Shown: piece by piece, positions 37,978 to 64,000 of the stretch
Numbering within the stretch: position 1 is the stretch's first letter
How the letters are laid out: every line of letters starts with the position of its first letter
Assembly (NCBI GenBank): GCA_050287085.1
Contig: JBNKBE010000010.1
Location: 128,001-192,000, forward strand
Direction: 5' to 3'
DNA length: 64,000 bases
Source of the DNA: Polyangiaceae bacterium
GTDB taxonomy: Bacteria > Myxococcota_A > Polyangia > Polyangiales > Polyangiaceae
The notes under the pieces: generated by a model
The model's database searches: none
Told to the model about the DNA's origin: nothing
What the model saw: only the letters and a program-made list of their open reading frames with translations
Program-made: the position numbers and the translations under genes

Positions 37978-38024
37978 CGTCGAATTGCTCACACCGTGGC
38001 GCAGCCATTGTCGGTGATCTGACA
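37978..38024 (+). promoter_or_regulatory. Paired NifA upstream activator sites for the nifZ operon
   Basis: CGT-N10-ACA at 37978-37993 and perfect TGT-CGGTGATCTG-ACA at 38009-38024. Confidence 0.8.
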
Positions 38025-38103
38025 ATACGAGCGTCGCAGCGAGGAGAACCCGCAACAGGGGCGTCTCGCGCGACGAGAAGCGCGATAGGTCGTCCAGAGC
38101 CAC

Positions 38104-38119
38104 TGGCATTCGCTTTGCA
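38104..38119 (+). promoter_or_regulatory. Sigma54 -24/-12 promoter (nifZ)
   Basis: TGGCATTCGCTTTGCA. Confidence 0.85.
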
Positions 38120-38131
38120 TCTACACCAAAC

Positions 38132-38659
38132 GTGAAGGCACGATATGAACTGGGGCAGCACGTTCGGGTGACGCGAAACGTGCGCAATGACGGCACGTTT
38201 CCTGGGCGTGACATGGGTGAGCTCTTGCTACGCCGTGGGGCCACCGGCTATGTCCGTGATATCGGAGCGTTTCTCCAGGATCAGGTCATCTACTCGGTTG
38301 ACTTTATCGAGTACGGCTATCGGGTGGGGTGTCGCGAGCAAGAGCTCATTGCGGCGGAGGCGCCGTGGCTCCCCAACAGGTACGAGTTCAGAGACCGTGT
38401 TTATCTGACAAGAGCGATAGGTGTGCGAGGAGAACAGGTGGCGCTCGCGGGTACTGAAGTAGAGATCCTTCGCGTTGTTCGTACTCACCCGACGTGCATC
38501 CTGTATCATGTCCTTGTTGCAGGTCGGACTTTTCAACTGCCGGAAGCCGTCCTTGAAGGCGAAAGTGACTTTGATGAAAAGGTCAAAGAGACAGTCGCGC
38601 GCGGTATAGATGCCAATGGAACCACCGCTGGCGCCACCTTGCCCTGGCAGAATCTATGA
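38132..38659 (+). CDS. nifZ: Nitrogen fixation protein NifZ
   Basis: VRNDGTFPG, GYVRDIGAFLQDQVIYSVDF, VGCREQEL. Confidence 0.92.
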   Translation: MKARYELGQHVRVTRNVRNDGTFPGRDMGELLLRRGATGYVRDIGAFLQDQVIYSVDFIEYGYRVGCREQELIAAEAPWLPNRYEFRDRVYLTRAIGVRGEQVALAGTEVEILRVVRTHPTCILYHVLVAGRTFQLPEAVLEGESDFDEKVKETVARGIDANGTTAGATLPWQNL

Positions 38660-38671
38660 AAGGCCACAGCC

Positions 38672-39148
38672 ATGCTACCTATTGCATCACAGAATGCGTT
38701 TTCAGATGCAGCTTCGGAGGACCTGTTGACGGTGGCCTTGGCTACCAGCGACGATAAGAGTGTGAATCAACACTTTGGCTCTGCAAAGCGCTTTGTCATT
38801 TTCGGTCTTTCAAGAGATGAACGGCGGCCCCTCGGAGAGCGCGCTTTCGCCGACGCGGTACAAGACGGAAACGAGGACAAGCTCGTGGACAAGCTCCAAT
38901 GGTTGAAGGGCTGCGACGTCGTGGTCTGTGCGCAAGTGGGGCAGTCTGCGGCCAAGCAATTGCTCAGCGGCGGCACGCGGCCCATTGTCGTCAGAGGGGG
39001 GGCAGCCATTGCTGAAGTGCTTGCTGAGCTTCAGAAGGAGCTCGTCGAGCAGAAAGCCGCGTGGCTCAATCAGATCATGCGTCGCAAGGGAGCTGCTTCC
39101 AAGGAGCGGCTTTATGACATGCTTGATGATGATTGGGAGGCGTCATGA
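38672..39148 (+). CDS. nifX: NifX, second copy (FeMo-co precursor carrier)
   Basis: VALATSD...VNQHFGS, QDGNEDKL, L.GC, C-terminal RLYDMLDDDW. Confidence 0.85.
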   Translation: MLPIASQNAFSDAASEDLLTVALATSDDKSVNQHFGSAKRFVIFGLSRDERRPLGERAFADAVQDGNEDKLVDKLQWLKGCDVVVCAQVGQSAAKQLLSGGTRPIVVRGGAAIAEVLAELQKELVEQKAAWLNQIMRRKGAASKERLYDMLDDDWEAS

Positions 39149-39582
39149 GCGCCTTGTCGTTTGAAGCGTCGGCGCCAAGCACGTCGTTGCCGCGAACTCT
39201 CGAGAATTGGATGACGGAGCGCTGGCATGGAGTACTGAAGCTCCGCTTGACGCGGGAAGAACAAGCCGGCGATCTGGCACGCGCCTCGGAGTTGCGGGCG
39301 CGCTTGGAGCGTGCCGTGGTGGTCAGGCGGGAGGACATTCTGTCGACGCGAGTGCAGTTTGGCTCAGAGGTTACGGTATTCAACATCGATGAGGCGGAGG
39401 AGCAGACCTTTGTGGTGGTTAGTCAAGATGAGGCAAGCGTTGGGGCAGGACTCGTAGACCAAGCGAGTCCGCTGGCGCAGGCGTTGTTTGGAGCTCAAGA
39501 GGGAGATGAGGTGGAAGTTGTGCTTCCCCGCGGCAACACCTGCCGCTATGAAGTGACAGCGATCGGCATTCCCAAGAGTTGA
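39145..39582 (+). CDS. GreA/GreB/Rnk-family protein with shortened coiled coil
   Basis: VQFGSEV, DEA, SPLAQALFG, EGDEVEV.LP.G; ATGA overlap with nifX2. Confidence 0.8.
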   Translation: MSALSFEASAPSTSLPRTLENWMTERWHGVLKLRLTREEQAGDLARASELRARLERAVVVRREDILSTRVQFGSEVTVFNIDEAEEQTFVVVSQDEASVGAGLVDQASPLAQALFGAQEGDEVEVVLPRGNTCRYEVTAIGIPKS

Positions 39583-39625
39583 GCCAGCGAGTGCTTTGCC
39601 TCAGCCACTCTTCGCCGAAGACCGC

Positions 39626-40381
39626 CTAGTCATTCCCTTGATCGGAGGGGTCCGTCTGACTTAGGCGGGCTTCGACGAGTCGCCGTACCTCTGGCTCTGG
39701 ATCGTCGACGAGTCGGCGAATTGCGTCGAGTGGCGCAAGCGAGGCAGCCTCGAGGCGCACGGTCCAGTCGGTATCTTTCAGCAGAGGAGCTAGGTCCGCT
39801 CCTCTCAGTCGGGTGGCGACAACACGGCGCACTTCGGGTGCCTCGTCGTAGGTCATGAAAGGCAGGCTCACCAGGGGCAGCCGCGCTGCAACCACCTTGC
39901 GCACTTCTCGCTCCCGATCGTTCATGAGCGGAAAGAGGCGATCGGCGTGCATGCGACGTGCGGCGTAGACCCGCACCTGATAGTCAGGATCGTTGGCAAG
40001 CTCTCCGAGGGCATCGGCGGGCAAGCGATCGGCAACCGTAATGCGCACTTCGCGATCCGGATCCGTCTTGAGTAGGACGAGTTGCTCCAGTGGCAGGCGG
40101 TATGCAACGGCTCTGCGCACTGTTTCGTCCGGATCGGAAATGAGCTCGGGGAGCTGCTCGACCGGAAGGTATCGCGCGCTGATCGCTCTGCGTTCCCAGA
40201 AGGGGTCCTTTGTGTACTGCGAGGCACAAGCTGGATTGTTGCGAAAGAAGCGATCGATCTGTCGACCACTATTCACCTTTACACAGGCGTCGCCAGGGGC
40301 GCATCGGCCAACGTGTGCCAGCACTTGGTGGCAACAGCGTGAGCAGTCAGCGATTGGCGTGTGGCGCTCGGGCTGAGCCAT
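39626..40381 (-). CDS. lrv: 4Fe-4S leucine-rich-repeat variant (LRV) protein
   Basis: CSRC...C.PGDAC, RQIDRFF, repeated D(P)D..VR..VA.RL. Confidence 0.9.
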   Translation of the reverse strand: MAQPERHTPIADCSRCCHQVLAHVGRCAPGDACVKVNSGRQIDRFFRNNPACASQYTKDPFWERRAISARYLPVEQLPELISDPDETVRRAVAYRLPLEQLVLLKTDPDREVRITVADRLPADALGELANDPDYQVRVYAARRMHADRLFPLMNDREREVRKVVAARLPLVSLPFMTYDEAPEVRRVVATRLRGADLAPLLKDTDWTVRLEAASLAPLDAIRRLVDDPEPEVRRLVEARLSQTDPSDQGND

Positions 40382-40384: not shown

Positions 40385-40789
40385 CTACTCCGGAACCAAG
40401 CGCAGCTCACTCTTGAGTGCGCTCTTGCGACCCCATACCTGTACCGCTTCGACGTGTAGCTGAGGGCGCATGGGATGGGTGCGAGTTACGAAGTACTCCG
40501 CGAAAACACTGCCGTCGCCACGAAGTAGGACACTACCCTGTTGTTCTCCGCTTCTATGCCAGGCGATTTCCAAGGCGAGTGAGCCATCAAACGGATCGCT
40601 TCGAAATGTCGCAGTTGTTGCGTCTTCGAACGGGGCTTTGGGAAGTTGCAGTCCGATGTGAGTGAGCTCGACTACTATGCGTTCTGAAACCGCGCCCGCG
40701 AGCTCACGTACCGCTTGCTCGGTGAGGGGAAAGGCAGCCGGAGCGCGCTCAGTGATTGTTGTGGGCATTGTCATCGACCTTGGCGTCAA
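40385..40789 (-). CDS. Nif-associated hypothetical protein
   Basis: DPFDG, DGSVFAEY, HP, VEAV..WG; tightly packed in the operon. Confidence 0.7.
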   Translation of the reverse strand: MTPRSMTMPTTITERAPAAFPLTEQAVRELAGAVSERIVVELTHIGLQLPKAPFEDATTATFRSDPFDGSLALEIAWHRSGEQQGSVLLRGDGSVFAEYFVTRTHPMRPQLHVEAVQVWGRKSALKSELRLVPE

Positions 40790-41127
40790 CGCTTGAGCAC
40801 GACGATCAGTTCTGCGACGGGGGTTCCCCGTGTCAGGTGCGAGTCGACGATGAGGTCGATATCATCTTTGCTCTTGGGTTGGTACCAAACCCCTTCCGGG
40901 TAGATCACCATCAGGGGCCCAGCGCTGCAGAAGCCCATACAGCCCGTTGTGTTGAGGGATACTCTCGGGTCCTGCATGCGCTCCAGTCGAACGGATAGGT
41001 GTTCCCAGAGCGGTCGCGCTCCGGCCGATCCGCAACTGCCTCGGGGGTGGTTCGGAGGGCGGTCTTGGCAACAGACAAGGCAATGATACTTGTAGACAAC
41101 CGGTAGTTCGAAACCGCTTACGTTCAT
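40786..41127 (-). CDS. Thioredoxin-like [2Fe-2S] ferredoxin (FeSI-like)
   Basis: C..DRPPNHPRGSC, TGCMGFCSAGP, IYPEGVWY. Confidence 0.88.
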   Translation of the reverse strand: MNVSGFELPVVYKYHCLVCCQDRPPNHPRGSCGSAGARPLWEHLSVRLERMQDPRVSLNTTGCMGFCSAGPLMVIYPEGVWYQPKSKDDIDLIVDSHLTRGTPVAELIVVLKR

Positions 41128-41876
41128 AGCGATGACTCCTGGCACACGGGGCTTGTGGCGATCGAATCGGAACCGGACACTACGAAGCATTCTTCGAAAC
41201 TCGAACACTCGTCGCAGGACGGCGCTCGGCAGACGTAGTCGCCGCCCAGTTCGCATAGTTGTCGGTAGAAGAAGCGCTTCCAACGCATGTCACGCGTGTT
41301 CTTTGCTACCAGCTGGGGAAAGCAAGCGGACAACAAGAGGCGCAGCTCTGCCCTGGAATTGAGGCCCAGATCCTTCCAGAGGTGTTGTCCTCCAAGGCAT
41401 GCATGAGCCACTATCCTGGCCACCAGGCGGGGCGCTTCATCTTCGGGTCCAAGCTCGGTGCTGAGCAACTTCACTAGCTGCGAGACTTCGTCTTGCCGCT
41501 GGGACGCGAGCAGCGCTCGCAGCGCCCCGCGTTCGTCGAATCGCTTGGCGCATTGCTGGTATGCGGGTATTCGGATGAGTTCGTTCATCAGCTCATCGAG
41601 TGTTGGTGCGCTGCCATACGCGAGAGCCAGCAAGTGATTGAGCGCGTCTCTGCCAAGGCCCAGGTAGCTCGGTAGCGCCGAGTCACCTGCCAGTGTGCTT
41701 GCCAGAATACCCGTCAGGATTCTCGACAGTGTGCCCTCCAGCGGGCGGGTCGCGCCCTGTTGCGGGGGGCTACGCTGTAGCCGCGCGGACACGTAGCGCC
41801 GTAGATCCACTGGTACGGAACGTCCCTCGCCTTGTTCGGGAAGGGTGGAGGTATACATGAACTCTGCACAGCTCAT
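41124..41876 (-). CDS. nifQ: Molybdenum donor NifQ
   Basis: HLWKDLGL..R, NTRDMRWKRFFYRQLC, CRAPSCDECSSFEECF. Confidence 0.93.
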   Translation of the reverse strand: MSCAEFMYTSTLPEQGEGRSVPVDLRRYVSARLQRSPPQQGATRPLEGTLSRILTGILASTLAGDSALPSYLGLGRDALNHLLALAYGSAPTLDELMNELIRIPAYQQCAKRFDERGALRALLASQRQDEVSQLVKLLSTELGPEDEAPRLVARIVAHACLGGQHLWKDLGLNSRAELRLLLSACFPQLVAKNTRDMRWKRFFYRQLCELGGDYVCRAPSCDECSSFEECFVVSGSDSIATSPVCQESSL

Positions 41877-41892: not shown

Positions 41893-42189
41893 CTAGGAGC
41901 TAGACGCGGCGGACCTGTCGGCCTCTTTGGCTCGGAGTTCTAGGGTGCGTTCAGCCGGAATGCCGGTGAGTGTTCCCAGTGGATTCAAGGGCTGACCGCT
42001 TGCGTCTAGAATTGCCTCCTCGACGGGACAGATGGTCGCGCATTGAGGCGTGTCGTAGTCTCCGGCGCATTCCGTGCACTTGCGGGAGTTCACTTTGAAG
42101 TGTGGTTTGCTCTCGTAGATGGCGTCATTCGGACAGACCATCATGCAGGCAAAGCAATTGACACATAGCTCTACGATCTTGACCGACAT
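41893..42189 (-). CDS. fdxN: 2[4Fe-4S] ferredoxin FdxN
   Basis: CVNCFACMMVCP and CTEC...PQCATICP, directly after nifB. Confidence 0.88.
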   Translation of the reverse strand: MSVKIVELCVNCFACMMVCPNDAIYESKPHFKVNSRKCTECAGDYDTPQCATICPVEEAILDASGQPLNPLGTLTGIPAERTLELRAKEADRSAASSS

Positions 42190-42199
42190 GAGACGCCTC

Positions 42200-43681
42200 C
42201 TATCCGGCAACCGTCAGGGCTTGTGGCGTGAGAGCCAGCTGCAACTTGGGGAGAAGTTCGCGGTAGACCGCGGCCACTGCCTCTTCAATGGGTTCCATAG
42301 CGTGGGCCCCATCCGGAACGATACCGGCCTCTTCGAGCTGCTCCCACGGACCGAAGCCGATTTTGGAGCACAGCACCGCCGCACATCCCTCCAGGGTGCG
42401 GATATTCCTCTCGAGAGCGTCTTCCGCCTCACCACAGGTGTCACCGCCACTGCAGTACAGATCGACCTTGCGATGGCTGATAAAACGAACCCCCTGAGGA
42501 GAAGCTTCATAGACCAGGAACTCTCGAGCATGACCGAAGTGCTCGTTCACGACGCCTCCTCCCTTGGTTGCGACGGCTATCAGAGCTGGCGGGGCGTAGA
42601 GCGCAGATAGCTTCTCTTGTTCTGGCCGGGCGGCCCTGGTCTTTGCCTCGAGCTCGACGGCGATGGCGTCATGGAGCTTCTTGCGTCTTACCATGGCGGC
42701 TTCGTAGTCGATATCCATCTCCGCTATCTTGTCCAACGTGAACTCGGCACCACGGTCCTCTCCGAGAAGACCCACCGCGTCAGCACGGCATTGGCGGCAG
42801 TGGCGCATCATGTTCATGTCTCCGGAACAGGCATCTTGAAGCGTCTGAAGCTCTTCCTGCGTGGGGCCACGTTGATGCATGACCCCGTAGTAGGTGCCAT
42901 GTTCTTCTTCGGCAATAAGTGGCATCACGTTGTGGAGGAACGCCCCTTTCTGCTTCACAACTCTACTTACTTCGGACAGGTGTTGGTCGTTGACCCCGGG
43001 TATCATTACGGAGTTGACCTTCACGAGGATGTTGCGTGCAACGAGCATCTCGAGTCCGCGTTGCTGTTGTTTGATAAGAATGTGCGCCCCCTTGCGTCCA
43101 CGGATCCGCTTGTTGTTCCAGTAGATCCAAGGATAGATCTTGGCACCGATCTCGGGATCGACGCAGTTGATCGTGATGGTGACATGATCGATGTTATGCT
43201 TTGCGATTTCATCGACGTATTGAGGGAGGTTCAGCCCGTTGGTGGACAAGCAGAGCTTGATATCCGGAGTCTGTGCCGTAAGACCGTTGAACGTCGCGAA
43301 CGTGCGTTCGGGGTTGGCGAGCGGATCTCCAGGTCCGGCTATTCCCAGAACCGTCATTTGGGGAATGGTCGCGGCTACCGCCTTCGTCTTCATCACGGCT
43401 TGTTCCGGCGTCAGTAGTTCCGAAACGACACCAGGCCGTGACTCGTTTGAGCAATCATACTTGCGGTTGCAGTAGTTGCATTGGATGTTGCATGCCGGTG
43501 CCACCGCGACGTGCATGCGCGCAAAATAGTGGTGCGCTTGCTCAGAGTAGCAGGGATGATTCTGTACCTTGGCGCGCACCTCGTCTGAGAGATGTGCCAG
43601 TTGGTCGCCAGAACTGCCGCAGGAGTTCGCGTCGCAGCCGGCACCGGCGGAAGGCGTGTCTTGTATCACCTCAAGGTCCAT
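42200..43681 (-). CDS. nifB: Radical SAM FeMo-co biosynthesis protein NifB with C-terminal NifX-like domain
   Basis: HPC, CNIQCNYC, ESRPG, AGPGDPL, CRQCRADA, NEHFGHA. Confidence 0.97.
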   Translation of the reverse strand: MDLEVIQDTPSAGAGCDANSCGSSGDQLAHLSDEVRAKVQNHPCYSEQAHHYFARMHVAVAPACNIQCNYCNRKYDCSNESRPGVVSELLTPEQAVMKTKAVAATIPQMTVLGIAGPGDPLANPERTFATFNGLTAQTPDIKLCLSTNGLNLPQYVDEIAKHNIDHVTITINCVDPEIGAKIYPWIYWNNKRIRGRKGAHILIKQQQRGLEMLVARNILVKVNSVMIPGVNDQHLSEVSRVVKQKGAFLHNVMPLIAEEEHGTYYGVMHQRGPTQEELQTLQDACSGDMNMMRHCRQCRADAVGLLGEDRGAEFTLDKIAEMDIDYEAAMVRRKKLHDAIAVELEAKTRAARPEQEKLSALYAPPALIAVATKGGGVVNEHFGHAREFLVYEASPQGVRFISHRKVDLYCSGGDTCGEAEDALERNIRTLEGCAAVLCSKIGFGPWEQLEEAGIVPDGAHAMEPIEEAVAAVYRELLPKLQLALTPQALTVAG

Positions 43682-43742: not shown

Positions 43743-44030
43743 TCAGGCAGGCATCGGAGAGTGAGTGTGACAGTCGCGCGGACAGACCGCGTCGCAGGCC
43801 CGACATCCAATGCAGTCCAGGGGATCTTTCAGAGTCATCACTTTGAGCACGTCGTCGTCGTTGTCGTCGTCGTCGTCGTCGCAGGCTTCGCGCTCCATGA
43901 GTTCAAAGACGTCCCGCGGGCATACTTTGAAGCAGCGGCCACAACCGATACACTTGCTCTCGTCCAAGGCGGTTACGTATTGAGGTACCCACTCGTCGCC
44001 TCGGAGCGTACGGCCCACGATATTAGCCAT
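43743..44030 (-). CDS. fdxB: Nif-specific ferredoxin III
   Basis: W.PQYV, CIGCGRCFKVCPR, acidic loop, CIGCRAC..VCP. Confidence 0.9.
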   Translation of the reverse strand: MANIVGRTLRGDEWVPQYVTALDESKCIGCGRCFKVCPRDVFELMEREACDDDDDDNDDDVLKVMTLKDPLDCIGCRACDAVCPRDCHTHSPMPA

Positions 44031-44265
44031 CGGAACTCTCCTGCTCGGGGGTCGTGGGCAGGCTTCCAGCGGCTTCCAGCCTCTCGCTACACACGCGCCA
44101 ATGCTCGCAGGCATCAAAGGTGGACTGCGATAGCTCTGGTAGCTCCTGATAGGCCGCCGGAAGACGGTCTTCGGCCAGGTCGTGAAGCTTCGAGGCCCAT
44201 TCGGTGGCGATACGCTTGCTACGGCGAACCTCTTTTTGCAATGCCTTGAGTTCCTCCGGCGTCAT
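44023..44265 (-). CDS. CCE_0567 / Rop-like nif-associated protein
   Basis: LHDLAEDRLP motif. Confidence 0.85.
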   Translation of the reverse strand: MTPEELKALQKEVRRSKRIATEWASKLHDLAEDRLPAAYQELPELSQSTFDACEHWRVCSERLEAAGSLPTTPEQESSDG

Positions 44266-44269: not shown

Positions 44270-44740
44270 CTACGCTCCGGCGACTTCAGGATGGTCTTCG
44301 ATGGCCTTTAGCGCCTGTTCGACGAGTCTGTCGCCCTGGGCTTCCATCTTGGCGAGGGATGGAAAGCCAAAGCGATGGACGTCACGGAGGGTGCGGTCGA
44401 GGACCACCAGCTTTCCGGTCGTTATCAGTGCCCGTCCAAACCCCTCGTGACTGAGATGGATCAGCGGAACGCTGAGCAGACGAGTTTGCGTCTCGATTCG
44501 CACCGCGATCGCATTGTAGAACGCGCGAACTCTCGACACAGTGACCTCGTCCGGATCGCCTACCAAAGGGATCTCTGCTTTTCGCTCCTTGGTCAAAATC
44601 ATGGGATCAAGAATCTTGTCGTCGCTCCAGCTGTCGTACTGACCATAGGAGTCGAGAGCTCTGAGTTGACGTACGAGCTCCTTCGAGAACGGGCCTAGAC
44701 TCGACTGAGACGAGGGCGCTACTGCTTGTACTGCTTCCAC
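44270..44740 (-). CDS. NifX-associated protein (DUF269)
   Basis: RALDSYG, IPLVGDPD, FYNAIA, HEGFGR, LRDVHRFGF. Confidence 0.9.
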   Translation of the reverse strand: MEAVQAVAPSSQSSLGPFSKELVRQLRALDSYGQYDSWSDDKILDPMILTKERKAEIPLVGDPDEVTVSRVRAFYNAIAVRIETQTRLLSVPLIHLSHEGFGRALITTGKLVVLDRTLRDVHRFGFPSLAKMEAQGDRLVEQALKAIEDHPEVAGA

Positions 44741-44744
44741 GAAA

Positions 44745-45218
44745 CTAGTCCTTCTGTTGACGAAGTGGGTTGCGTTTGGAGAATCGCGCTGTGAGGCTCT
44801 CGAGCCGCGGGTTGCGACCACGCCAGTTGGCGATGCTGTCGTTCAATTCGCTCTGCAGCACTGGGAGCAAAGACTTGATCTCGGTGCCGCTGACTGTTCT
44901 TAGAGGAAGCACGCCCCGTGCCAGTAGTCTGCGGCTAGCCGAAGAGCCGATAGCTGCCGCATAAACCAGGTCACATTGGCCGAGCCACTCCAAGCGCCCA
45001 GCCAGCCTGTGTTCGTGACCGCTCCCTTCGCTTGTCGCGAAGTCGCCAATTGTGATGGGGGCAGCTGTAGAGTTGTCAACGAGATAGACCAGATATGTGG
45101 AGGCTGCGCCGAGATGTTGGTCCACCGTGACGCCATCCGAGGTGGCGAAAGCCGCGCGAACACCGTCTGCCGTCGGCTGAAGTCCGCTGAGAATGTCTAG
45201 TTGACGCAGCAGAGGCAT
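44745..45218 (-). CDS. nifX: NifX at canonical position (divergent)
   Basis: Follows nifN; AFATSD..VDQHLG, C..VY..AIG. Confidence 0.8.
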   Translation of the reverse strand: MPLLRQLDILSGLQPTADGVRAAFATSDGVTVDQHLGAASTYLVYLVDNSTAAPITIGDFATSEGSGHEHRLAGRLEWLGQCDLVYAAAIGSSASRRLLARGVLPLRTVSGTEIKSLLPVLQSELNDSIANWRGRNPRLESLTARFSKRNPLRQQKD

Positions 45219-48078: not shown

Positions 48079-48333
48079 CTAGAGCTCTGCAAGAACCAGT
48101 CCCACGGCATTCTCGAGCTCCGATGTCAGACTCAGGCAGTGACCGCTGCTGGTGAGAAGATGAATCTGGAAGTCCGTCCCCTCTCGATAGGGTGTATGGG
48201 TCTCGACGTCGTCAGCACTGCAGGTTGTCAAGCGGATTGAGGGATGAAGGCGCCGCAGTTCCGATAGCGTTTCCGGTCGAACGCCGTCGAGTTCAAGACG
48301 CTCTACAATGGCTTTAAGTTCAGACTGTTGCAT
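48079..48333 (-). CDS. Small nif-associated protein (DUF6129-like)
   Basis: TTCSADD, GHCLSLT...A.GLVLA; position between nifY and nifE. Confidence 0.75.
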
Positions 48334-54172: not shown

Positions 54173-54186
54173 CAGCGTTGGTCTCC

Positions 54187-55348: not shown

Positions 55349-56179
55349 CTACCCGAGAAGCGATTGCGGACGCGCCTCGATGATGGATAGCCTAAGACGT
55401 TGGCAGAAGCGTCGCTCCTTGTCGGTGGGATTGTTGAGAAGAACCCACCCGGTACTAGTTTTGTCCGCGCCGTAGGTCAATTCTGTAAGGAGCATGCGTT
55501 CGGTATCTCGTCTGAAGCGCAGTCCCACAACCAGATAGCGCTTGTCGATACGACGAGCTTTTACGAACGACGGGATGGCAAAGCCACCCATCAACTCAGT
55601 AATGTAGTCGACGAAGTCTGCATCCGAGGCAATGAAGCTTGGACTGGGAAGCGGCGTTCCTAGCGGTTTGAAGAGGACAGGTAGGGCCTTGTCGACCGCT
55701 TCAGGCGAACGCTCAACATAGCTACTTCCGGTAAACTCGAAGAGCTTGTAGCGATAGTCGGTTGCACCGATGCGGGCCACGCCCAGAATCAGTGTGTGTC
55801 TTCTCCCCTCGTAGGCCTTCTGCAGCTGTGAGTCGCGATTGGTGTCAATTATGTAGGGGAGATTCTGGGCCGCAAGCCACTGGTGAAGTGGGGACGCCGT
55901 CCACTGTCTCGTGGCGTAGGTACGCGTCAGGGAGTCTTCTACGAAGCGCCGACCTTTCTTGAGTTCAAGATTCATGGCAGCTCGCGAAAACTCGTACATC
56001 AGTTTTGGCGCCATCGGCTTGCCGGCGTTCAGCGAGAGAATCAGGCTGTCGGAGTCCGCCGGAATCGGCGTCCCATTCGCTGCGTCGACGACTCCGTCGA
56101 GCGCCTCCGGTCCGAGATAGGGAACGACGCTTCCGTTTGCCAGGCCTTGTTTGATTTCTTGGATAACTTCGAGGTTCAT
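55349..56179 (-). CDS. Nif-associated SIR2-like domain protein
   Basis: VPYLGP, MAPKLMYEFSRAAM, IDTNRD, LFKP.G, SDADFVDYITELMGGF. Confidence 0.75.
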   Translation of the reverse strand: MNLEVIQEIKQGLANGSVVPYLGPEALDGVVDAANGTPIPADSDSLILSLNAGKPMAPKLMYEFSRAAMNLELKKGRRFVEDSLTRTYATRQWTASPLHQWLAAQNLPYIIDTNRDSQLQKAYEGRRHTLILGVARIGATDYRYKLFEFTGSSYVERSPEAVDKALPVLFKPLGTPLPSPSFIASDADFVDYITELMGGFAIPSFVKARRIDKRYLVVGLRFRRDTERMLLTELTYGADKTSTGWVLLNNPTDKERRFCQRLRLSIIEARPQSLLG

Positions 56180-56183
56180 GACT

Positions 56184-57497
56184 CTACCCGTGTCCGTTGG
56201 CGGCGCTTTCGCTGGTGGGGGGGACCTGCTGCGCGCTCCATTCGCACTCCAGGTGCTGGACTTGGTCCAGGTAGAGCTCATCATCTGCGGAGCAGCGAAG
56301 CGTGCAGCGTGTTGGTCGATCGAATGGCAGTTCAAACATTGTCGGGAGCAGGGCTTTTTCCAGGACGGAACGGAGCCCTCGGGCACCCGTTTTCGCCTCC
56401 AACGCCACGCGCGCTACGCGCTTGAGCGCGGCTGTGTCGAAGTCCAGCGTCACGCCGCTTTGAGCGAACAGTACTTGGTATTGACGAGTCAGCGCATTGC
56501 GAGGTTCACGTAGAATGCTGACCAACGCTTCTTCGTCAAGTTCCTCAAGTCCTGCCAGGACCGGGAATCGTCCGAGGAACTCGGGAATGAAGCCATATGA
56601 GCGGAAGTCGCGATTCTCTGCCTGAGAGATGAGTTCGAGCATCTCGGCCTCGCCGCGGGCAACCGAGCCGGTGCTGAACCCAATGCGCTTCTCGGGACGC
56701 ATGCGCTTGGCGACGCTCTCCAAGAGCCCATCAAAGGCACCGCCGACGATGAACAGGATGTTGGTAGTATCTAGGTAGTCACGACTGTCACGTCCGTCGC
56801 GGTCCTTGCTCTTCTGCTTTGGTAGAGAGACACGATGTCCTTCGACGAGCTTGAGAAGTGCTTGTTGTACACCCTCGCCGGAGATGTCGCGCACTCCGGT
56901 CGGACCCTGGGAGCGCCGGGCGAGCTTGTCGACCTCGTCTATGTAGACGATGCCCCACTCGGCGCGGCCGACGTCACCGTCCCCGGAGTCAAGGAGGCGA
57001 TGAATGATGGTGTCCACGTCTTCCCCAACGTAACCGGCTTGCGTGAGGGTCGTCGCGTCGGCTATGGCAAAGGGGACTCCAACAAGGGCCGCCAAGCGTC
57101 TTGCGAGCAGCGTCTTTCCGGAGCCGGTCGGACCGAACAGGAGCACGTTGGACTTCTCGAGGACTACGCTGTCGTCGGCTTCGGTGGACAGTTTCGCGTC
57201 GGCACGCAGGTGCAGGCGTTGATAGTGGTTGTAGACGGCCACCGAGAGAATGCGTTTCGCAGCGTCCTGTCCGATAATGAACTCGTCGAGTTGGCGCTTC
57301 AGTTCGCGAGGAGAAGGCACGGTGGGCGCTTCACCTTTGCGCCCTCCACGACTGCCCCATGCCGACACCACACGGTGCGCACAGCGCACGCAAGCATCGC
57401 AGATATAGCCGTCTTGGCCCGCAATGAGTGGGGTTCCGGGACCTTGTGCCACGCCACAAAACGAGCAGCTGGGGGAGGAGGGGGCTCTAGTTGACAT
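56184..57497 (-). CDS. clpX: Nif-associated ClpX ATPase (ClpX2-like)
   Basis: CSFC...CDAC zinc finger, GPTGSGKT, AGYVGED, IDEVDK, IGF loop, GARGLR. Confidence 0.93.
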   Translation of the reverse strand: MSTRAPSSPSCSFCGVAQGPGTPLIAGQDGYICDACVRCAHRVVSAWGSRGGRKGEAPTVPSPRELKRQLDEFIIGQDAAKRILSVAVYNHYQRLHLRADAKLSTEADDSVVLEKSNVLLFGPTGSGKTLLARRLAALVGVPFAIADATTLTQAGYVGEDVDTIIHRLLDSGDGDVGRAEWGIVYIDEVDKLARRSQGPTGVRDISGEGVQQALLKLVEGHRVSLPKQKSKDRDGRDSRDYLDTTNILFIVGGAFDGLLESVAKRMRPEKRIGFSTGSVARGEAEMLELISQAENRDFRSYGFIPEFLGRFPVLAGLEELDEEALVSILREPRNALTRQYQVLFAQSGVTLDFDTAALKRVARVALEAKTGARGLRSVLEKALLPTMFELPFDRPTRCTLRCSADDELYLDQVQHLECEWSAQQVPPTSESAANGHG

Positions 57498-58230
57498 GAT
57501 GGGTCTCCGCGAGCACCGTCTGAACCCAACGCTTTTGTGCGGACAGCTGTCGTCGTCGTAGCAGCGTAGACCTCAACTTGGCTTCAACGTTGGAGAAGCT
57601 CTTGATATGCTCCGGAACGACTTCAAGGCACTGCACGATGTGCCATCCCATTGTCGTGCGAATTGGGACGCTCACCTCGCCCTCATCGAGTTCGAAGGCC
57701 GCCGCATCCAGTTCCTTGTAGAGCTGACCTCGCTGTATCCAGCCCAGTAGCGCCTGGTCCATCGCAGTGGGGCACTCCGACACCTCGAGTGCCAGCGTTC
57801 CGAAGTCTGCGCCCAAGTCCAGCTTGCGCTTGACCTCGTCTATTCGGAGCCTAGCTGTCTGTTCCGTGTTGTCGATAAATCGATCTTGAACGGTGATCAG
57901 AATATGTCGCAGTTTTCGCTTCTCTGGGACGAGCCAGCGTTCCGGGTAGCGGCGGTAGAAGTTCTCGAGCTCGTGTTGTTCAAGAGGCATGACATCTTTG
58001 GACACCTCCTCGAGAGTCGCCTTAAGCCATTCCTTGCGGAACAGTTCGTCCGCCACCTGCTCTGCTCGAAGATGCGTTGAAGCAAGCTGCCCGCGCAGTT
58101 CGGGATCGGTCGAAAGGAGCTCCAAGAGGACCGCCTTGCTCGGGAGTCGCGCCTTGACCCGGAGCGCTTCTTGCGTTGCGAGCAGTCTCGCAGCGAGCTC
58201 GCTGCGCTCCAATGTAGGGCGCGACGTCAC
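57487..58230 (-). CDS. nifM: NifM (parvulin-type PPIase domain)
   Basis: RHILIT, SECPTA, LG...RGQLY.ELD, GWHI; located between nifW and clpX. Confidence 0.87.
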   Translation of the reverse strand: MTSRPTLERSELAARLLATQEALRVKARLPSKAVLLELLSTDPELRGQLASTHLRAEQVADELFRKEWLKATLEEVSKDVMPLEQHELENFYRRYPERWLVPEKRKLRHILITVQDRFIDNTEQTARLRIDEVKRKLDLGADFGTLALEVSECPTAMDQALLGWIQRGQLYKELDAAAFELDEGEVSVPIRTTMGWHIVQCLEVVPEHIKSFSNVEAKLRSTLLRRRQLSAQKRWVQTVLAETHHVN

Positions 58231-58580
58231 TTGTTGGCTCCGCTGTCCGTCTGGACGTTCAGGGCTCCTTCAAGATGCGTGAGTGGGACGAACGTCTCAC
58301 CAATAGCGTTCTTCAGTACCTTAAATACGCGCTCGTCGAGGGGCGTTGATTCGACGAAGTCCTGATAGGCGCGAGCGAGCAGGGCCCTATGGACAACGTG
58401 GCGGGCGGATTCGTTCTCCGGACTTATGTCACTGCTTCGTTCCAAGTAGTCGTGGTAGCGCTGGAGGATGTGAAGGCGATTGACATGAACAACACTCGCT
58501 TCGTATGGCACCTCGAAGTAGTCGAGGAAGTCTTCTGCGGAACTGAGTTCCGACAGGGCATCGTCAAGTTCAGTCATCAT
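58227..58580 (-). CDS. nifW: NifW
   Basis: LSSAEDFL.YF, VNRLHILQR, AYQDF, FKV. Confidence 0.93.
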   Translation of the reverse strand: MMTELDDALSELSSAEDFLDYFEVPYEASVVHVNRLHILQRYHDYLERSSDISPENESARHVVHRALLARAYQDFVESTPLDERVFKVLKNAIGETFVPLTHLEGALNVQTDSGANK

Positions 58581-58594
58581 GGTGCTCTCCTTCA

Positions 58595-59767
58595 TCAGGG
58601 GCGATTTGCGTTTGGCGAGGGTGCTCGGGCGCTTGCGCCGTCGTCGGCGAGTCGACTGTTTGTGTAAAGAGCGAGTAGCTCCTTCCGACGGGGCGAACGC
58701 TTATTGACGATCGCAAAGCGGCGCACTTCGTTGAGGAGTAGCGTGCTTCGCTCCGGCTCGAGTGCGATGCCCAGGTTCTCAAAAACGCGGCTCAGGGCCC
58801 GCGTTCCGGAGTGTTTTCCGAGCACAATGGTGTGTCGTCTGCCGAGCAAGCGGGCATTGACCCCGTCGTAGTTGTGCACGTCTTTGAGCAAGCCATCGAC
58901 ATGGATACCAGCCTCATGGGTGAAGACCGCTCGGCCGACGATGCTTTTCTGTGCCGGCACGGCTCGTCCCGACGCCTTCGACACGGCTCCGGACAGAGAG
59001 CGTAGACGTTCGGTGCGCACTCCGGTGGTGCGGCCATAGAGCTGGTGCAAGGCAACCACAACCTCCTCGAGTGGAGCGTTCCCCGCCCGTTCACCTAGAC
59101 CGTTGACGGTTGTGTTGACATGCGTGGCGCCTCCGACCACCGCAGCTAGGCTGTTTGCTGTGGCAAGACCCAAGTCGTCGTGCGCGTGAATCTCGAGCTC
59201 GAGGTCGGTCGCGCTTCGCATCCGACGAAACGCGGTTGCGATACCAAAGGGCTCGGCTACGCCGAGAGTATCGGCATAGCGAAAGCGACGTGCACCTGCC
59301 GCTTGGGCAGCCTCGAGCACACGAAGAACGAACTCAGGATCGGCCCTCGACGCATCTTCTCCGCCGATACATACCTCGAATCCGAGGTCACGAACGGCTG
59401 CGGTGCACGTTGCTATCTGGGATAGGACCCAACGGCGGTCTTTGCCGAGCTTGTGATGAATATGCTGCTCCGACATCGGTACTGAAATGTCGACGATGTG
59501 AACAGGGAGACCGGCAAGGAGCGCGACGTCCGCTGGGTTGCAGCGGCTCCATACCAACAATCTCGACGGGAGGCCGGCGCTCCCGATCGCGGCTATAGCC
59601 TCCCGCTCTTCTGCGCCCATCGCTGGGATACCCACCTCGAGCTCAGGTACTCCGAGCTCGGAGAGTCGACGTGCTATAGCCACCTTTTCGTCGAGACAAA
59701 AGGCGACGCCCGCCGTCTGCTCACCATCACGCAACGTCGTGTCGTCAATGACGATATGCTGGGTCAT
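58595..59767 (-). CDS. nifV: Homocitrate synthase
   Basis: [38 protein letters not shown]. Confidence 0.96.
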
Positions 59768-59808: not shown

Positions 59809-61020
59809 CTAGGCGTAGACTGGTGCGAACGCCTGCTCTGGGTCTTCTTTGGGGCCGCTTTCGCCCCAGTAGGGCGATAGCTTGCGGAGTTGGGCTACGA
59901 CAGCGGGTGTCTCCGCGATGACGTGGGCGACTTCGTCCGCCGTGGTATATGTGGACAGAGAGAAGCGAACGGTCCCGTGAGCGGCCGTATAGGGAATACC
60001 CATCGCTCGCATCACGTGGGACGGTTCGAGCGAGCCGGAGGTGCAGGCAGAGCCACTGGATGCGGCGATTCCGAGACGATTTAGCAGCAGCAGGATCGCT
60101 TCGCCTTCGATGAATTCGAAGGCGATATTGGCAGTATTGGGCAATCGATTCGTCGGATCACCGGTGACGAAACATCTGGGAATGGCTGCGAGCAGACCTT
60201 GTTCCAGACGATCGCGAAGAGCACGGACGTAGGTATTCTCCCGCGCCATGTTGGCCAGTGCGAGCTTGGCAGCCTCCCCAAGTGCTACGATTCCGGGGAC
60301 GTTCTCCGTTCCGGCGCGACGACCACGTTCCTGGTGTCCACCCCGAAGAAAGGGTCGGAAGCGTGTGCCCCGCTTCACGTAGAGGGCGCCCACTCCCTTG
60401 GGTGCGTGCAACTTATGTCCGGAAAGCGACAGCATGTCGATCTTGGTACTCTTGAGATCGAGAGGGATCTTTCCGACGGCCTGTACCGCATCTGTATGAA
60501 ACGGCACTCCTTGTTCGTGGGCCAGCTCAGCCATCTCAGGAATCGGAAAGAGCGTTCCGGTTTCGTTGTTTGCCCACATGACGGTTGCGATCGCGACCTG
60601 CTCTGACAAGGCCCTCTTATATTCGGCCATGTCCAGGCGCCCCTGTGAGTCGACGCCGAGCCAATGCACTTTGTAGCCCTCAGACTTCTCCAGGTAGGAG
60701 CAAACGTTGAGTACCGCAGGATGCTCCACTGTAGTTGTGATGAGCTCTTTGCGCTCGGGGTTGGCGCGGACGGCGGAGAGAATCGCAGTGGAGTCCGACT
60801 CGCTTCCACAGGAGGTGAATACGACTTCGGTAGAATGAGCCGCGCCCAGCAGTTCCTGCACTGCCTTACGGGCGTCGTTCAGCGACTTCGCAACGCGATT
60901 GCCGAAGCTGTGCATCGAGGACGGATTGCCAAACTGCTCGGTTAGGAACGGAAGCATGGCTGTCACGACCTCGGGGGCTACTTGGGTCGTTGCGTTGTTG
61001 TCGAGATAGACGTCGGGCAT
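59809..61020 (-). CDS. nifS: Cysteine desulfurase NifS
   Basis: YLDNNATT, SGHKLH, SSGSACTS. Confidence 0.97.
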   Translation of the reverse strand: MPDVYLDNNATTQVAPEVVTAMLPFLTEQFGNPSSMHSFGNRVAKSLNDARKAVQELLGAAHSTEVVFTSCGSESDSTAILSAVRANPERKELITTTVEHPAVLNVCSYLEKSEGYKVHWLGVDSQGRLDMAEYKRALSEQVAIATVMWANNETGTLFPIPEMAELAHEQGVPFHTDAVQAVGKIPLDLKSTKIDMLSLSGHKLHAPKGVGALYVKRGTRFRPFLRGGHQERGRRAGTENVPGIVALGEAAKLALANMARENTYVRALRDRLEQGLLAAIPRCFVTGDPTNRLPNTANIAFEFIEGEAILLLLNRLGIAASSGSACTSGSLEPSHVMRAMGIPYTAAHGTVRFSLSTYTTADEVAHVIAETPAVVAQLRKLSPYWGESGPKEDPEQAFAPVYA

Positions 61021-61023: not shown

Positions 61024-61941
61024 TCAGCCTCCCATGTGCACTAGTTGCTTCTTGGCATGCTGAGGGACCACCTTCAGGAATTCGCCAGTGGCTTCCATCA
61101 ACTTCTGCTGAACAAGGCCGAGTGTGGCAGAAGCCAGAGAACACCCGGAACACGCCCCCGTTAGTTCTACGAGGACTTGATTGCCGTCGATGTCAAGCAG
61201 GCTGATATCGCCGCCGTCAGCTCGCAGTGTCGGCCGTACGCTCTCTATGGCCTCTTCGATCAGGCGGATGCGCTGCAGATCGGTGAGTTGAGCGGGGGCT
61301 GCCTTCTTGGCACGGGTTGATTCTTCGGGAAGCGGTGGCTCAGTGAGATGGCCAGCACCGCTTTCGTAGTCGTCGCCGGCCAGTACTTCCGCGAGAATGT
61401 CTTCGATCGACTCGTGGCAGCAGGCGCACCCACCGCCTGCTTTGGTGTAGTTGACGACATCTTGGACCGTAGAGAGATTGTTTTCCCGAATGACGCGCTC
61501 GATCATGGGCGCGTCAATGGCAAAGCACTTGCAAACCAGGGCACCTTCCTCGTGATCGTCGACCCACTCTTCGCCGCGGTAGTTTGCAACGGCTGCGTGT
61601 AGCGCCTCTCGGCCCATTACCGAGCAATGCATCTTCTCAGGGGGCAATCCTTCGAGGTAGGCCGCGATGTCGTTGTTCGTGACAGCCAGCGCATCGTCCA
61701 GCGTCATACCTTTTACAATCTCGGTGAGAGCAGAGGACGAGGCGATAGCGGAGCCGCAGCCAAACGTTTCAAAGCCCGCCTCGAGAATAACGTCTGTGTT
61801 GGGGTCGACTTTGAGTGTTAGTCGGAGTGCGTCCCCGCATGCGATCGAGCCGACCTCGCCAATTCCATTGGGAGCGTCGACTGCACCCGCGTTGCGCGGA
61901 TTGAAGAAATGGTCCTTAACCTTATCGGTGTAATCCCACAT
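61024..61941 (-). CDS. nifU: Fe-S scaffold NifU (three-domain)
   Basis: CGDAL, FGCGS, KMHCS, CKCF, GGGCAC, DGGD...GACSGC. Confidence 0.97.
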
Positions 61942-61968
61942 GCTGGCCTCGTATCTGCGAATACCTGC

Positions 61969-62292
61969 CTAGCAGGCGAACGACTTGCCACAGTTGCAGG
62001 CGGCTGTGGCGTTGGGGTTTTGAAATTTGAATCCGGTCCCGTCGAGACCGTCTAGGAAGTCAAGCGTGACGCCTTCGAGCATCGGGGCACTTTCCGGATC
62101 AATGAAGACCCGCGCTTCGCCCTCGGTGATGACGGTGTCGTTGTCAGCAGCTCCAGTTTCCACTTTCATCTTGTACTGGAGACCGCTGCATCCTCCGTTT
62201 TCGACGGCGATGCGAACTCCGCTTTGGGTAGAGGACGCCGTCCCGGCGAACCGCACGACAGCGTTGACTGCGCTTTCTGTTAGCGTGAGCAT
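61969..62292 (-). CDS. iscA: IscA-nif (HesB family)
   Basis: GGCSGLQY, NPNA, CNCGKSF. Confidence 0.95.
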   Translation of the reverse strand: MLTLTESAVNAVVRFAGTASSTQSGVRIAVENGGCSGLQYKMKVETGAADNDTVITEGEARVFIDPESAPMLEGVTLDFLDGLDGTGFKFQNPNATAACNCGKSFAC

Positions 62293-62328
62293 CCGATGTT
62301 CTCCTTTGGTTGGCTGACACGAATAATG

Positions 62329-62344
62329 TGCACGCGCCGTGCCA
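62329..62344 (-). promoter_or_regulatory. Sigma54 promoter (iscA-nifUSV operon)
   Basis: TGGCACGGCGCGTGCA on the minus strand. Confidence 0.85.
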
Positions 62345-62483
62345 GCTCGGAATCTGACAAGTCCTGGAGTCAGTTGCCGCTGCGGTGGTGGAGAAGTTGC
62401 TGCTCAGGCCACGAGTCAGGCTGATGGCTACTGCTAGGTGCCGCCCTGAAACGCAGTCTACGACGTATCGAAACGCAGGCTGT

Positions 62484-62528
62484 TGTCACAAAGCAGACGC
62501 GACAGCGGCCTTTGTTGGAGTCGTGACA
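62484..62528 (-). promoter_or_regulatory. Paired NifA sites (iscA operon)
   Basis: TGT-N10-ACG at 62484-62499 and perfect TGT-TGGAGTCGTG-ACA at 62513-62528. Confidence 0.75.
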
Positions 62529-62590
62529 CGACCGACGGGTGGCGGTCACCGTATCACCGTGCGTGCGCGTCGACGCGCTGAACGGACGGG

Positions 62591-64000
62591 CTAGAAGCGC
62601 GGGACGTCTATCTTCAGGATCTGAATCCTGTACGCGACTTGTCGGGGCGTCATGCCAAGAAGTCGAGCCGCCTTCGCCTGCACCCAGCCGGCGCGTTCCA
62701 GGGCGGCCATGACCCTTTCTCGCTCATCAATGTTGGGATCGCGGAGATCGATTGTGGACGGCTGGTTGACACTGGCGGAGTGGGTTGTGAGTTCGCTCGA
62801 GACTCCTGCCATCGTGACCGCCTCATCATTGATGAGTCCGGCGCCGCTCATGATCGCTGCGCGTTCCAGGCAGTTTTCTAGTTCGCGCACGTTTCCAGGC
62901 CATTCAGCGGACTTCAGCAGACGTATCGCATCCTCGGTGATGCTCAGTTCTCGCTGTTGAACCCCCGCGAGCTTCTTGACGAGATGGACCGCGAGGTCAC
63001 CGATATCCTCCCGGCGATCGCGCAGCGGTGGCGTCAGAATTGGCATGACATTGAGCCGATAGAAGAGATCTTGACGGAACTTGTTTACCTCTACCTGTTG
63101 TTCCAGATCCTTGTTGGTCGCCGCAATGATTCGGACATCGGCCCTGAGCGTTTGGGTACCCCCCAGTCGCTCAAACTCGCCTTCCTGTAGTACACGCAGG
63201 AGCTTGGCTTGGAATGAGGGTGATATCTCTCCGATCTCATCCAAGAACAACGTTCCGCGGTGCGCTTGTTCAAAGCGACCACTGTGCCGTGCCACCGCAC
63301 CGGTGAAGGCTCCCTTTTCATGTCCGAAGAGCTCCGACTCGAGCAGGTTGTCGGGCAATGCTGCGCAGTTCAATTTGATGAATGGGCCTCGCGAGCGCTG
63401 GGAGCTATAATGAATGGCATGAGCTATGAGTTCCTTGCCAGTGCCCGACTCGCCCATGATCAAGACAGTGGTGTTCCACTTAGCGACCTGCCGCACCTGT
63501 GCAAAAACGCGACGCATCGCCGGTGTGTGGCCGACCAGATTCTCGAAGCCGTAGTGTGTTCCAGTGCTGGCAACGGCCGCCTGTCGAGCGCCATCAGATG
63601 ATGGCCAGCGAGCGGCTCCGTGTTGACCAACCAATGCGGCGCACATTTCGCAGAGCCGTGCAAAGGCGTCGAAGGCTTCTTCACTGAGAGATGGCTGAAT
63701 TTCGAGTACACCCGCTACCGCTCCGGCGGCGGTGCGAATTGGAACACCCACGAAGGGCATGGAAGAGTCATAGCTCGGGTTCTTGCCCACGAAGCGGTCA
63801 TCATCGCCGACCAACAGCGGCATGTGCAGTGGCTGTTCGCGTTCCGCTATCCAGCGTGCGGCACGGGAGTTGTTGATGCCTGCGGGGCGTGGGCTTCCGT
63901 CAGCAGCGTAGCTGGCGGCGACCTCCAGTGCGCTACCATCTTCGGTTAAGAACGAGATCTGTCCGAGTGCGGCTTGGGAGTGCTCGCATAGAACCCTCAA
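62591..64000 (-). CDS. nifA: Nif-specific sigma54 activator NifA (5' end outside the window)
   Basis: GAF remnant, [24 protein letters not shown], NifA-type [25 protein letters not shown]. Confidence 0.95.

Follow-up and report, generated by a model that had tools for sequence, protein, structure and literature searches.

The stretch of DNA analyzed here (the window: 64,000 nucleotides (nt), positions 128001-192000 of contig C10 in genome G000) contains, from its position 38.0 kb onward, part of a nitrogen fixation (nif) island in the genome of a bacterium that is not a proteobacterium and is most probably a member of the phylum Myxococcota. We put at roughly 0.8 the probability that this island is real and integrated in the chromosome, that it is a Group I molybdenum (Mo) nitrogenase system of the Pseudomonadales/Azotobacter kind and that it passed long ago from a gammaproteobacterial donor into a host outside the Proteobacteria. 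A sequence-only reading of the window had proposed such a cross-phylum transfer, and the proposal is supported: as far as these matters could feasibly be pursued, the host proved not to be a proteobacterium, the junctions gave no sign of a chimeric assembly, and the nitrogenase grouped with gammaproteobacterial sequences.

Affinity and gene content of the island

Contig C10 (227,664 bp, zero N) belongs to a metagenome-assembled genome (MAG) of 6.2 Mb in 160 contigs, which is 96.8% complete, 0.85% contaminated and has a guanine plus cytosine (GC) content of 62.8%. The island covers ~39 kb of this contig, from window position 38.0 kb to ~13.4 kb beyond the window end (~C10:205.4 kb, equivalent to window coordinate ~77.4 kb), and is surrounded by host sequence, 166 kb on the left and 22 kb on the right. 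Within the window, 31 open reading frames (ORFs) were scanned with NCBIfam profiles against the curated cut-offs, and Pfam was used in addition; both scans find the Mo-nitrogenase region to be dense from 38.1 kb to the window end. Thirteen families exceed their curated cut-offs in the NCBIfam scan of the island ORFs, and all six members of the minimal set nifHDKENB do so (bits/cut-off: nifH 468/394, nifD 865/654, nifK 902/427, nifE 680/505, nifN 540/327, nifB 655/344). The nifX and nifY products score 61-79 bits versus a cut-off of 112 and are still clearly related to the respective families.

The NifD and NifK proteins align over their full length with solved MoFe proteins (NifK from residue 1 to 523 with solved beta chains), which we take to be those of Azotobacter vinelandii, and the ligand residues sit in blocks identical to the solved chains. 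In what is presumably the A. vinelandii numbering, the ligands of the FeMo-cofactor (FeMo-co; alpha Cys275 and His442) and of the P-cluster (alpha Cys62, Cys88 and Cys154; beta Cys70, Cys95, Cys153 and Ser188) are all in place. The expected positions of these ligands, the length of 523 amino acids (aa) given for NifK and the short NifH strings quoted in the sequence-only reading, including MRQCAIY, are thus all recovered.

The nearest named homologs of the structural proteins come from Gammaproteobacteria of the orders Pseudomonadales and Oceanospirillales, with identities of 88, 88, and 83% for NifH, NifD, and NifK, respectively. In a NifD scan with one genome per species, in which the best 80 of 600 relatives were kept, 78 of these 80 are Pseudomonadota by title, one is an Isosphaeraceae MAG and one an "uncultured bacterium"; no title among these 80 loci names Myxococcota or Desulfobacterota. 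The top NifD matches (86-89%) belong to a Pseudomonadales MAG, Stutzerimonas azotifigens, a Cellvibrionaceae strain and Oceanobacter. Trees of concatenated NifHDK were built from 82 candidate loci minus those in which nifH or nifK is missing or cut (L010, L020, L029, L030, L051, and L056); the distant cluster of genome G029 (see below) was excluded because its NifD is only 36-41% identical to that of the window, and the trees contain no Anaeromyxobacter or Geobacter reference. In the quick tree (77 rows), the window pairs with a congener, G008 (support 100), and the pair adjoins ten rows of Pseudomonadales, Oceanospirillales, and Cellvibrionaceae, forming a joint clade supported at 96. The careful tree, restricted to 37 rows chosen as representatives of the clades, recovers the pair with support 100/100 and the joint clade, which here includes the Isosphaeraceae row, with 88/95. 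Among these references, NifHDK is thus of the gammaproteobacterial type, as had been claimed; the gammaproteobacterial affinity is clear, while the exact donor is not resolved by the sequences compared. The Isosphaeraceae MAG itself (L037, JARLIH010000002.1), with NifHDK 78-85% identical to those of the window and placed in the same Pseudomonadales-type clade, may reflect a further transfer across phyla or a mistake in binning.

All island genes in the window lie on the minus strand except three at the left edge. In the direction of transcription, the minus strand begins with the 3′ part of nifA, which continues outside the window (62591..64000; TIGR01817, 556 bits versus 529), followed by the gene for an IscA-type Fe-S carrier, the first gene of the nifUSV operon (61969..62292; TIGR00049, 117 bits), nifU (61024..61941; TIGR02000, 459 bits), nifS (59809..61020; TIGR03402, 627 bits), nifV, encoding homocitrate synthase (58595..59767; TIGR02660, 498 bits), nifW (58227..58595; NF002009), a gene for a nifM-like peptidyl-prolyl isomerase with a rotamase domain (57487..58230; TIGR02933), and the nif-linked clpX (56184..57497; NF003745, 486 bits). 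Next come an ORF with a weak Pfam match to SIR2_2 (55349..56386), a 141-aa ORF without a family match, and genes for a BolA-like protein (54187..54705; Pfam) and a rhodanese-domain protein (53870..54190; NCBIfam, Pfam). The structural and cofactor genes form the third run: nifH (52586..53461; 291 aa, starting at 53461 within the ORF 52586-53785; TIGR01287), nifD (51015..52511; TIGR01282), nifK (49320..50891; TIGR01286), nifT (49078..49302; Pfam NifT, 81.6 bits), a nifY-like gene with DIMCO_N and FeMo-co domains, the true start of which is probably further downstream (48303..49148; NCBIfam, Pfam), nifE (46601..48037; TIGR01283), nifN (45228..46700; TIGR01285), nifX (44745..45218; TIGR02663, 61 bits, under the cut-off), the gene for the NifX-associated DUF269 protein (44270..44821; TIGR02935, 192 bits), fdxN, encoding the nif-specific ferredoxin III (43743..44117; TIGR02936, 110 bits), and nifB (42200..43681; TIGR01290). 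The minus-strand series ends with a 4Fe-4S dicluster ferredoxin gene (41893..42210; NCBIfam, Pfam), nifQ (41124..41876; Pfam NifQ, 157 bits), a gene for a 2Fe-2S ferredoxin-like protein (40786..41283; NF041613, 74 bits, under the cut-off), an ORF without assignment, and the gene for a leucine-rich-repeat-variant (LRV) Fe-S protein (39626..40381; Pfam LRV, LRV_FeS). The three plus-strand genes of the left edge encode a NifZ-domain protein, whose gene is the leftmost of the island (38132..38659; Pfam NifZ, 105 bits), a protein with a NifX/NifB-C-terminal-like FeMo-co-binding domain (38672..39148; NCBIfam, Pfam), and a protein with a GreA/GreB C-terminal domain (39133..39582; NCBIfam, Pfam). Beyond the window (L001, positions 2-14009), family scans identify the rest of nifA, the adjoining nifL (TIGR02938, 488 bits versus a cut-off of 242), rnfABCDGEH, modABC, a nafY-like gene, and a gene for a long-chain flavodoxin. 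All rnf genes and clpX match family models, each with at least one model above the curated cut-off.

The intact nif gene set announced in the sequence-only reading is therefore borne out by NCBIfam and Pfam. Three details of arrangement had to be corrected: nifZ is located not between nifW and nifM but at the extreme left of the island, on the plus strand; nifHDKENB is not uninterrupted, as nifT, nifY, nifX, the DUF269 gene, and fdxN stand between nifHDK and nifENB; and the system is not bounded by position 64000 but runs on to ~C10:205.4 kb. As a separate observation, the ORF with the weak SIR2_2 match, which stands on the stretch from clpX to nifH, is matched in 41 of the 80 named proteobacterial loci. 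It is conserved close to nifH in gammaproteobacteria, the best seven matches being 57-63% identical, and can be regarded as a conserved nif-linked gene.

The island is most readily compared with the islands of the Pseudomonas/Stutzerimonas stutzeri group and with the nif system of A. vinelandii. With these, it shares nifQ, nifB, fdxN, nifHDKTY, nifENX, iscA-nifUSV, nifW, the nifM-like gene, and clpX as well as nifLA, rnfABCDGEH, modABC, the nafY-like gene, the flavodoxin, and the 523-residue NifK; the likeness presumably extends to the published A1501 island and to the Azotobacter gene order. For S. azotifigens, the identities of NifH, NifD, and NifK are 86, 87, and 81%, and nifL is located ~13 kb from nifD in both organisms. 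The resemblance to Azotobacter-type Group I clusters is accordingly substantiated by the gene set, the NifL score, and the NifHDK trees. The differences are that the host belongs to another phylum, that nifZ stands apart, on the other strand and at the island edge, that the regulators have diverged from the Pseudomonas/Azotobacter type far more than the enzyme (NifL is 38-41% identical), and that no integrase, tRNA, or border repeats were detected for the window island. The nif genes of Anaeromyxobacter and Geobacter also encode a Group I Mo-nitrogenase, and Anaeromyxobacter also belongs to Myxococcota, but the window cluster, unlike theirs, carries nifL and rnf, a comparison made without a direct Anaeromyxobacter sequence.

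In the literature, in passages of PMC11127431, the deltaproteobacterial NifD/K are described as one monophyletic clade without a clear hallmark of recent transfer, and Anaeromyxobacter as an established diazotroph. Uncultured Myxococcota MAGs with nitrogenase genes, some of them Polyangia, are reported from mangrove sediment in passages of PMC11474244, where one Polyangia MAG encodes the Wood-Ljungdahl pathway and two Myxococcota MAGs had no detected nifH transcripts; the passages of PMC10356936 describe Arc-Myxo from the Arctic Ocean as possessing only cluster III nifH, without nifDK or nifENB. In the text of these reports, as distinct from their supplementary tables, none of the mangrove and Arc-Myxo MAGs is described with a gammaproteobacterial-type nifLA-rnf island. 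More generally, passages of PMC10356936, PMC8139981, PMC11474244, PMC11613949, PMC11127431, PMC12685144, and bioRxiv 10.64898/2026.06.16.732551 contain no description of a gammaproteobacterial-type nif island in Polyangia, a statement that does not extend to the supplements, where such MAGs are possibly listed.

Host, flanks and congener islands

The host is not a proteobacterium. Its RpoB (contig C34) is 57% identical to that of each of three gammaproteobacterial genomes (four holders of the nearest NifD were searched) and 50% identical to that of a planctomycete, as opposed to 81-89% within its genus, 80% for a different genus in the family, and 74% for a family member with a single contig of 1.8 Mb. 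The genomes of the family span 1.8 to 11.5 Mb, a range suggestive of Polyangiaceae with Pajaroellobacter. The placement outside Proteobacteria given in the sequence-only reading thus holds, and its description of the flanks as Myxococcota-like has indirect support. The MYXO-CTERM model (TIGR03901), which we take to be specific to Myxococcota, has seven matches in G000; of 201 genomes sampled in the host phylum, 160 contain it, often with 10-36 matches per genome, versus 0 of 14 named controls from other phyla. In addition, for the esterase-like protein of the left flank (7073-8608), all 10 nearest Atlas clusters listed have Myxococcota as the commonest phylum. No 16S rRNA was found in G000.

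The left flank (1..37578) is of the host type in its Pfam families and in its tetranucleotide make-up, which is typical of the genome; it encodes a zinc peptidase, desaturases, an OpuA-type transporter, the esterase-like protein, a flavoprotein disulfide reductase, and, by Pfam, FabF-like, VgrG-like, lipoxygenase, and catalase-related proteins. The reductase (8750-10264) is 56-63% identical to its counterparts in congeners versus 35-39% in gammaproteobacterial genomes. On the right, beyond the flavodoxin, there are a PAP2 protein, a PEP-synthase-like protein, and a cluster of the MSMEG_0565-0569 type, and a fused CoA-transferase/acetyltransferase of this flank is found at full length and with 58-60% identity in 6 of 15 congeners, whereas the gammaproteobacterial matches (37-49%) cover the N-terminal first domain only.

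Several side observations concern the flanks as such. The lipoxygenase, catalase-related protein, and fatty-acid desaturase genes stand side by side just left of the island (33378-37578), which suggests oxylipin synthesis. A 516-aa protein (19571-21121) has a weak match, under the Pfam cut-off, to a phage baseplate hub/VgrG family. In most members of the order, the paralogs of the reductase (G000:C4:316765-318177 and homologs in nearly all relatives) have a single in-frame TGA, which may be a conserved selenocysteine codon. The conserved MSMEG_0565-0569/sll0787-type cluster of the right flank (L002 9693-16373; C10:218.7-225.4 kb) encodes a flavin oxidoreductase, a glycosyltransferase, an AIR-synthase-like protein, a radical SAM protein, and a Nit6803-family nitrilase.

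A match to NifD was detected in 2 of 17 congeners and in one further genome of the family. In the first of these congeners, G008, the gene order of the island recurs on contig C379 from modC through nifZ (nucleotide identity, 65-80%; NifD, 95% identical), and the left flank of C379 has its best matches on other G000 contigs. Every island protein that was compared is nearest to its G008 counterpart (NifE, 83% versus 77% for the best named locus; NifN, 65% versus 56%; NifL, 69% versus 41%). Between the window and G008, the proportion of synonymous differences is 0.68-0.79 in nif genes and 0.60 in rpoB, i.e., saturated, with dN/dS, the ratio of nonsynonymous to synonymous change, of 0.02-0.07. 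Since the synonymous sites are saturated and dN/dS does not exceed 0.07, the transfer appears to be old and the genes maintained; this age and the occurrence in a congener go beyond what the sequence-only reading had proposed. The GC content at third codon positions is 0.67-0.75 in the nif genes and 0.68-0.73 in the flank genes, with 0.58 to 0.93 in the same genes of gammaproteobacteria. Taken at the level of sequence comparison, it is likely that the island entered from a gammaproteobacterial donor at or before the split of the two species of the genus, and likewise likely that its third codon positions have since shifted to the host composition, the island being preserved by strong purifying selection. 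Composition was dropped as a sign of recent transfer, given that third-position GC equals that of the flanks and the rpoB locus has the same GC. A feature of the G008 island itself is an insert of ~4.8 kb of host-like genes between the mod genes and the nafY-like gene (G008:C379:1786-6609; L094), with best matches on G000 contigs C4, C34, and C23.

The second congener, G011, possesses a different Group I cluster (L097, G011:C15:20001-40000, and L098) that consists of nifHDKEN, the DUF269 gene, fixABC-type flavoprotein genes, nifUS, a nafY-like gene, and nifV, with a full-length nifA and no nifL in the cluster. Its NifD and NifK are 72 and 54% identical to those of the window, and its NifD scores best against the PDB chain 10zk/5koh (987 bits versus at most 848 for the others), presumably from Gluconacetobacter, an alphaproteobacterium. 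These comparisons suggest that the G011 cluster is a second independent gain. MNIO/MbnB-like and MbnP-like genes adjoin this cluster. In another genus of the family, G029:C226 (L087, L091) carries a third, distant nitrogenase-like cluster (versus the window: NifH, 68%; NifD, 36-41%; NifK, 36-39%).

Objections and alternatives

A number of observations weigh against the transfer as set out above, and it is convenient to consider them together with the alternatives to which they lend themselves. Two are of a general character: nifW (111 bits versus a cut-off of 117) and the linked nifM (146 versus 168) score under their curated cut-offs, although both are clearly related to the respective families, and the careful tree, with its unresolved backbone, gives no starred support to the connection with the Pseudomonadales-type clade.

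The next group concerns assembly. The island chunks (C10, 160-200 kb) are tetranucleotide outliers at the 98th-99th percentile, with a GC content of 59.3% versus 62.8% for the genome, whereas the nine 20-kb chunks of C10 outside this interval fall between the 10th and the 81st percentile (279 chunks). The junction sequence was found in one public run, probably the source of the assembly, so that the bridging contig is not an independent sample, and it covers the left junction alone; runs X2 and X3 of the same study hold nearly none of the sequence. Conservation in congeners is poor for the two genes that border the island (at best, 51% for the desaturase and 38% for the PEP-synthase-like protein), and for this reason a comparison with an empty site in the genus was abandoned. 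No tRNA was found in the window, L001, or L002, no word of at least 11 nt is shared between the two border regions, and no integrase family turned up among the ORFs covered by the general family scans. The outlying composition and the single run could be accommodated if a gammaproteobacterial nif contig had been falsely joined to, or binned with, a myxobacterial genome, given also that the MAG is in 160 contigs and that the nearest named Nif proteins are all proteobacterial. Such an artefact is extremely unlikely in our estimation. It would need two false joins within an N-free contig, and a second assembler crosses the left junction: a Logan contig of 16,471 nt spans window positions 29000-43879 with 0 differences at a depth of 17.4, and the next island contigs of the same run have depths of 17.8 and 17.5. 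The flank genes compared, on either side, resemble those of congeners more than those of gammaproteobacteria, G008 holds an orthologous island beside host-like genes, and no sampled gammaproteobacterium comes nearer than 88-89% in NifD (among the best 80 of 600). The GC content of the island cuts both ways, as the host rpoB locus also has 59.3%, and third-position GC in the nif genes is the same as in the flanks. The suspicion of a chimeric junction, raised in the sequence-only reading as a possible objection, thus finds no sign in its favor.

The name of the host phylum is open to objection of another kind, being derived indirectly, from MYXO-CTERM and the Atlas clusters. The right-flank protein without a family match has acetyltransferase clusters as its nearest Atlas neighbors, Bacteroidota- and Pseudomonadota-dominated and hence uninformative rather than myxobacterial, and an even sample of 400 other genomes across the host phylum yielded no NifD. 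As the established diazotroph Anaeromyxobacter could be expected among these 400 if the phylum is Myxococcota, the result is awkward, though the sample may have missed it. The transfer could then be real and the host a member of some other phylum, the assignment leaning on one short sorting-signal model and the Atlas taxa; we regard this as very unlikely in view of the contrast between 160 of 201 genomes with MYXO-CTERM in the host phylum and 0 of 14 controls, and of the uniform Myxococcota signal (10 of the 10 clusters listed) for the esterase-like flank protein.

The remaining objections bear on the number of gains. Of the 18 genomes of the genus, only two carry the gammaproteobacterial-type island, and a contamination of 6% is given for G008. 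In an RpoB tree, G019 and G015 are placed with G000, and five other genomes with G008; none of these relatives yielded NifD. The two holders are thus not sisters in this tree, which implies that the island was lost several times, was passed on within the genus, or came from two related donors. Instead of one gain followed by losses, the two islands could accordingly represent separate acquisitions from related unsampled gammaproteobacterial donors or a transfer between myxobacteria. The absence of a match to this NifD query in the nearest relatives, the different genomic surroundings of the two islands, and a synonymous divergence of the nif genes that is at least that of rpoB all fit such a scenario, which nonetheless strikes us as unlikely, if by no means negligible. 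Both trees unite the window and G008 with support 100 on a shared stem that is long (0.11-0.12), every tested island protein has the other myxobacterial copy as its nearest match, and the RpoB tree represents one gene, with several congeners 85-93% complete.

Proposed working and implications

Pattern searches reveal a putative regulatory layout of the kind that a NifA-controlled system would use. Sigma-54 -24/-12-like promoters are predicted before nifZ (TGGCATTCGCTTTGCA, 38104..38119, plus strand), 50 nt before nifH (TGGCACAGCCGATGCA, 53511..53526, minus strand), and before iscA-nifUSV (TGGCACGGCGCGTGCA, 62329..62344, minus strand). The sigma-54 pattern has 14 matches in the window, where 6.3 would be expected, and none of 100 shuffles attains this number. 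Candidate NifA upstream-activator sites of the form TGT-N10-ACA, which we take to be the NifA-site consensus, occur ~80 nt upstream of the nifZ operon promoter (38009..38024) and ~170 nt upstream of the iscA-nifUSV promoter (62513..62528); such sites are not enriched across the window (12 versus 8.25 expected), and only their positions before the two operons count. The host genome encodes rpoN, one P-II gene, ccoN of a cbb3-type oxidase, and a second heme-copper oxidase.

By analogy with known gammaproteobacterial NifL-NifA systems, from which we infer the regulatory and respiratory steps, NifL-NifA would act as an oxygen- and nitrogen-responsive switch. Under low oxygen and nitrogen limitation, NifA would be released by NifL and, together with the host sigma-54, would turn on the nifH, iscA-nifUSV, and nifZ operons at the -24/-12 promoters. 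The nifHDK genes would supply the structural proteins; nifB, nifE, nifN, nifX, nifY, nifQ, nifV, and the nafY-like gene would serve in FeMo-cofactor assembly, iscA, nifU, and nifS in Fe-S supply, nifM, nifW, nifZ, nifT, and clpX in maturation, and modABC in molybdate uptake. Electrons, provided by rnfABCDGEH, flavodoxin, and ferredoxins, would reach NifH via Rnf and flavodoxin, and the cell would fix N2 while respiring by cbb3- and aa3-type oxidases. Both the diazotrophy and the aerobic life of the host are deduced here from gene content.

The island might also be carried but silent, or nitrogen fixation might no longer be supported in this host. No RNA dataset is listed among the public runs that contain the junction stretch, nifM and nifW score below their curated cut-offs, and NifL is only 38-41% identical to gammaproteobacterial NifL. 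We nevertheless judge this improbable: every gene is open, the ligand residues are intact, dN/dS between the two species is 0.02-0.07, the predicted sigma-54 promoters and NifA sites are in place, and the host possesses rpoN and a P-II gene.

Transfer from a gammaproteobacterial donor, as judged by the sequences, probably gave this group the ability to fix nitrogen. A bolder possibility, to which we assign somewhat less than an even chance, is that the genus, a group of uncultured Polyangiaceae-like myxobacteria, took up whole proteobacterial nif systems more than once, the gammaproteobacterial nifLA-rnf type in G000 and G008 and the alphaproteobacterial-type fixABC system in G011, and has long kept the gammaproteobacterial island working, so that its members are active diazotrophs. 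Nif clusters are well known to have been transferred between lineages, which limits the surprise. It is limited further by the nif-bearing Myxococcota MAGs other than Anaeromyxobacter that appear in print, in passages of PMC11474244.

If the bolder possibility is true, active diazotrophy would extend to bacteria that respire oxygen and live as predators or saprotrophs, and NifL-NifA would work with a myxobacterial sigma-54 and P-II. A 39 kb system that crossed a phylum boundary with its own regulators and electron supply, and stayed under selection, would bear on the portability of nitrogen fixation, including its engineering. Nitrogen fixers are usually named from nifH alone, and because the window NifH is 82-89% identical to proteobacterial sequences, the organism would be counted as a gammaproteobacterium in amplicon surveys; large-genome aerobic myxobacteria would then be overlooked as diazotrophs.

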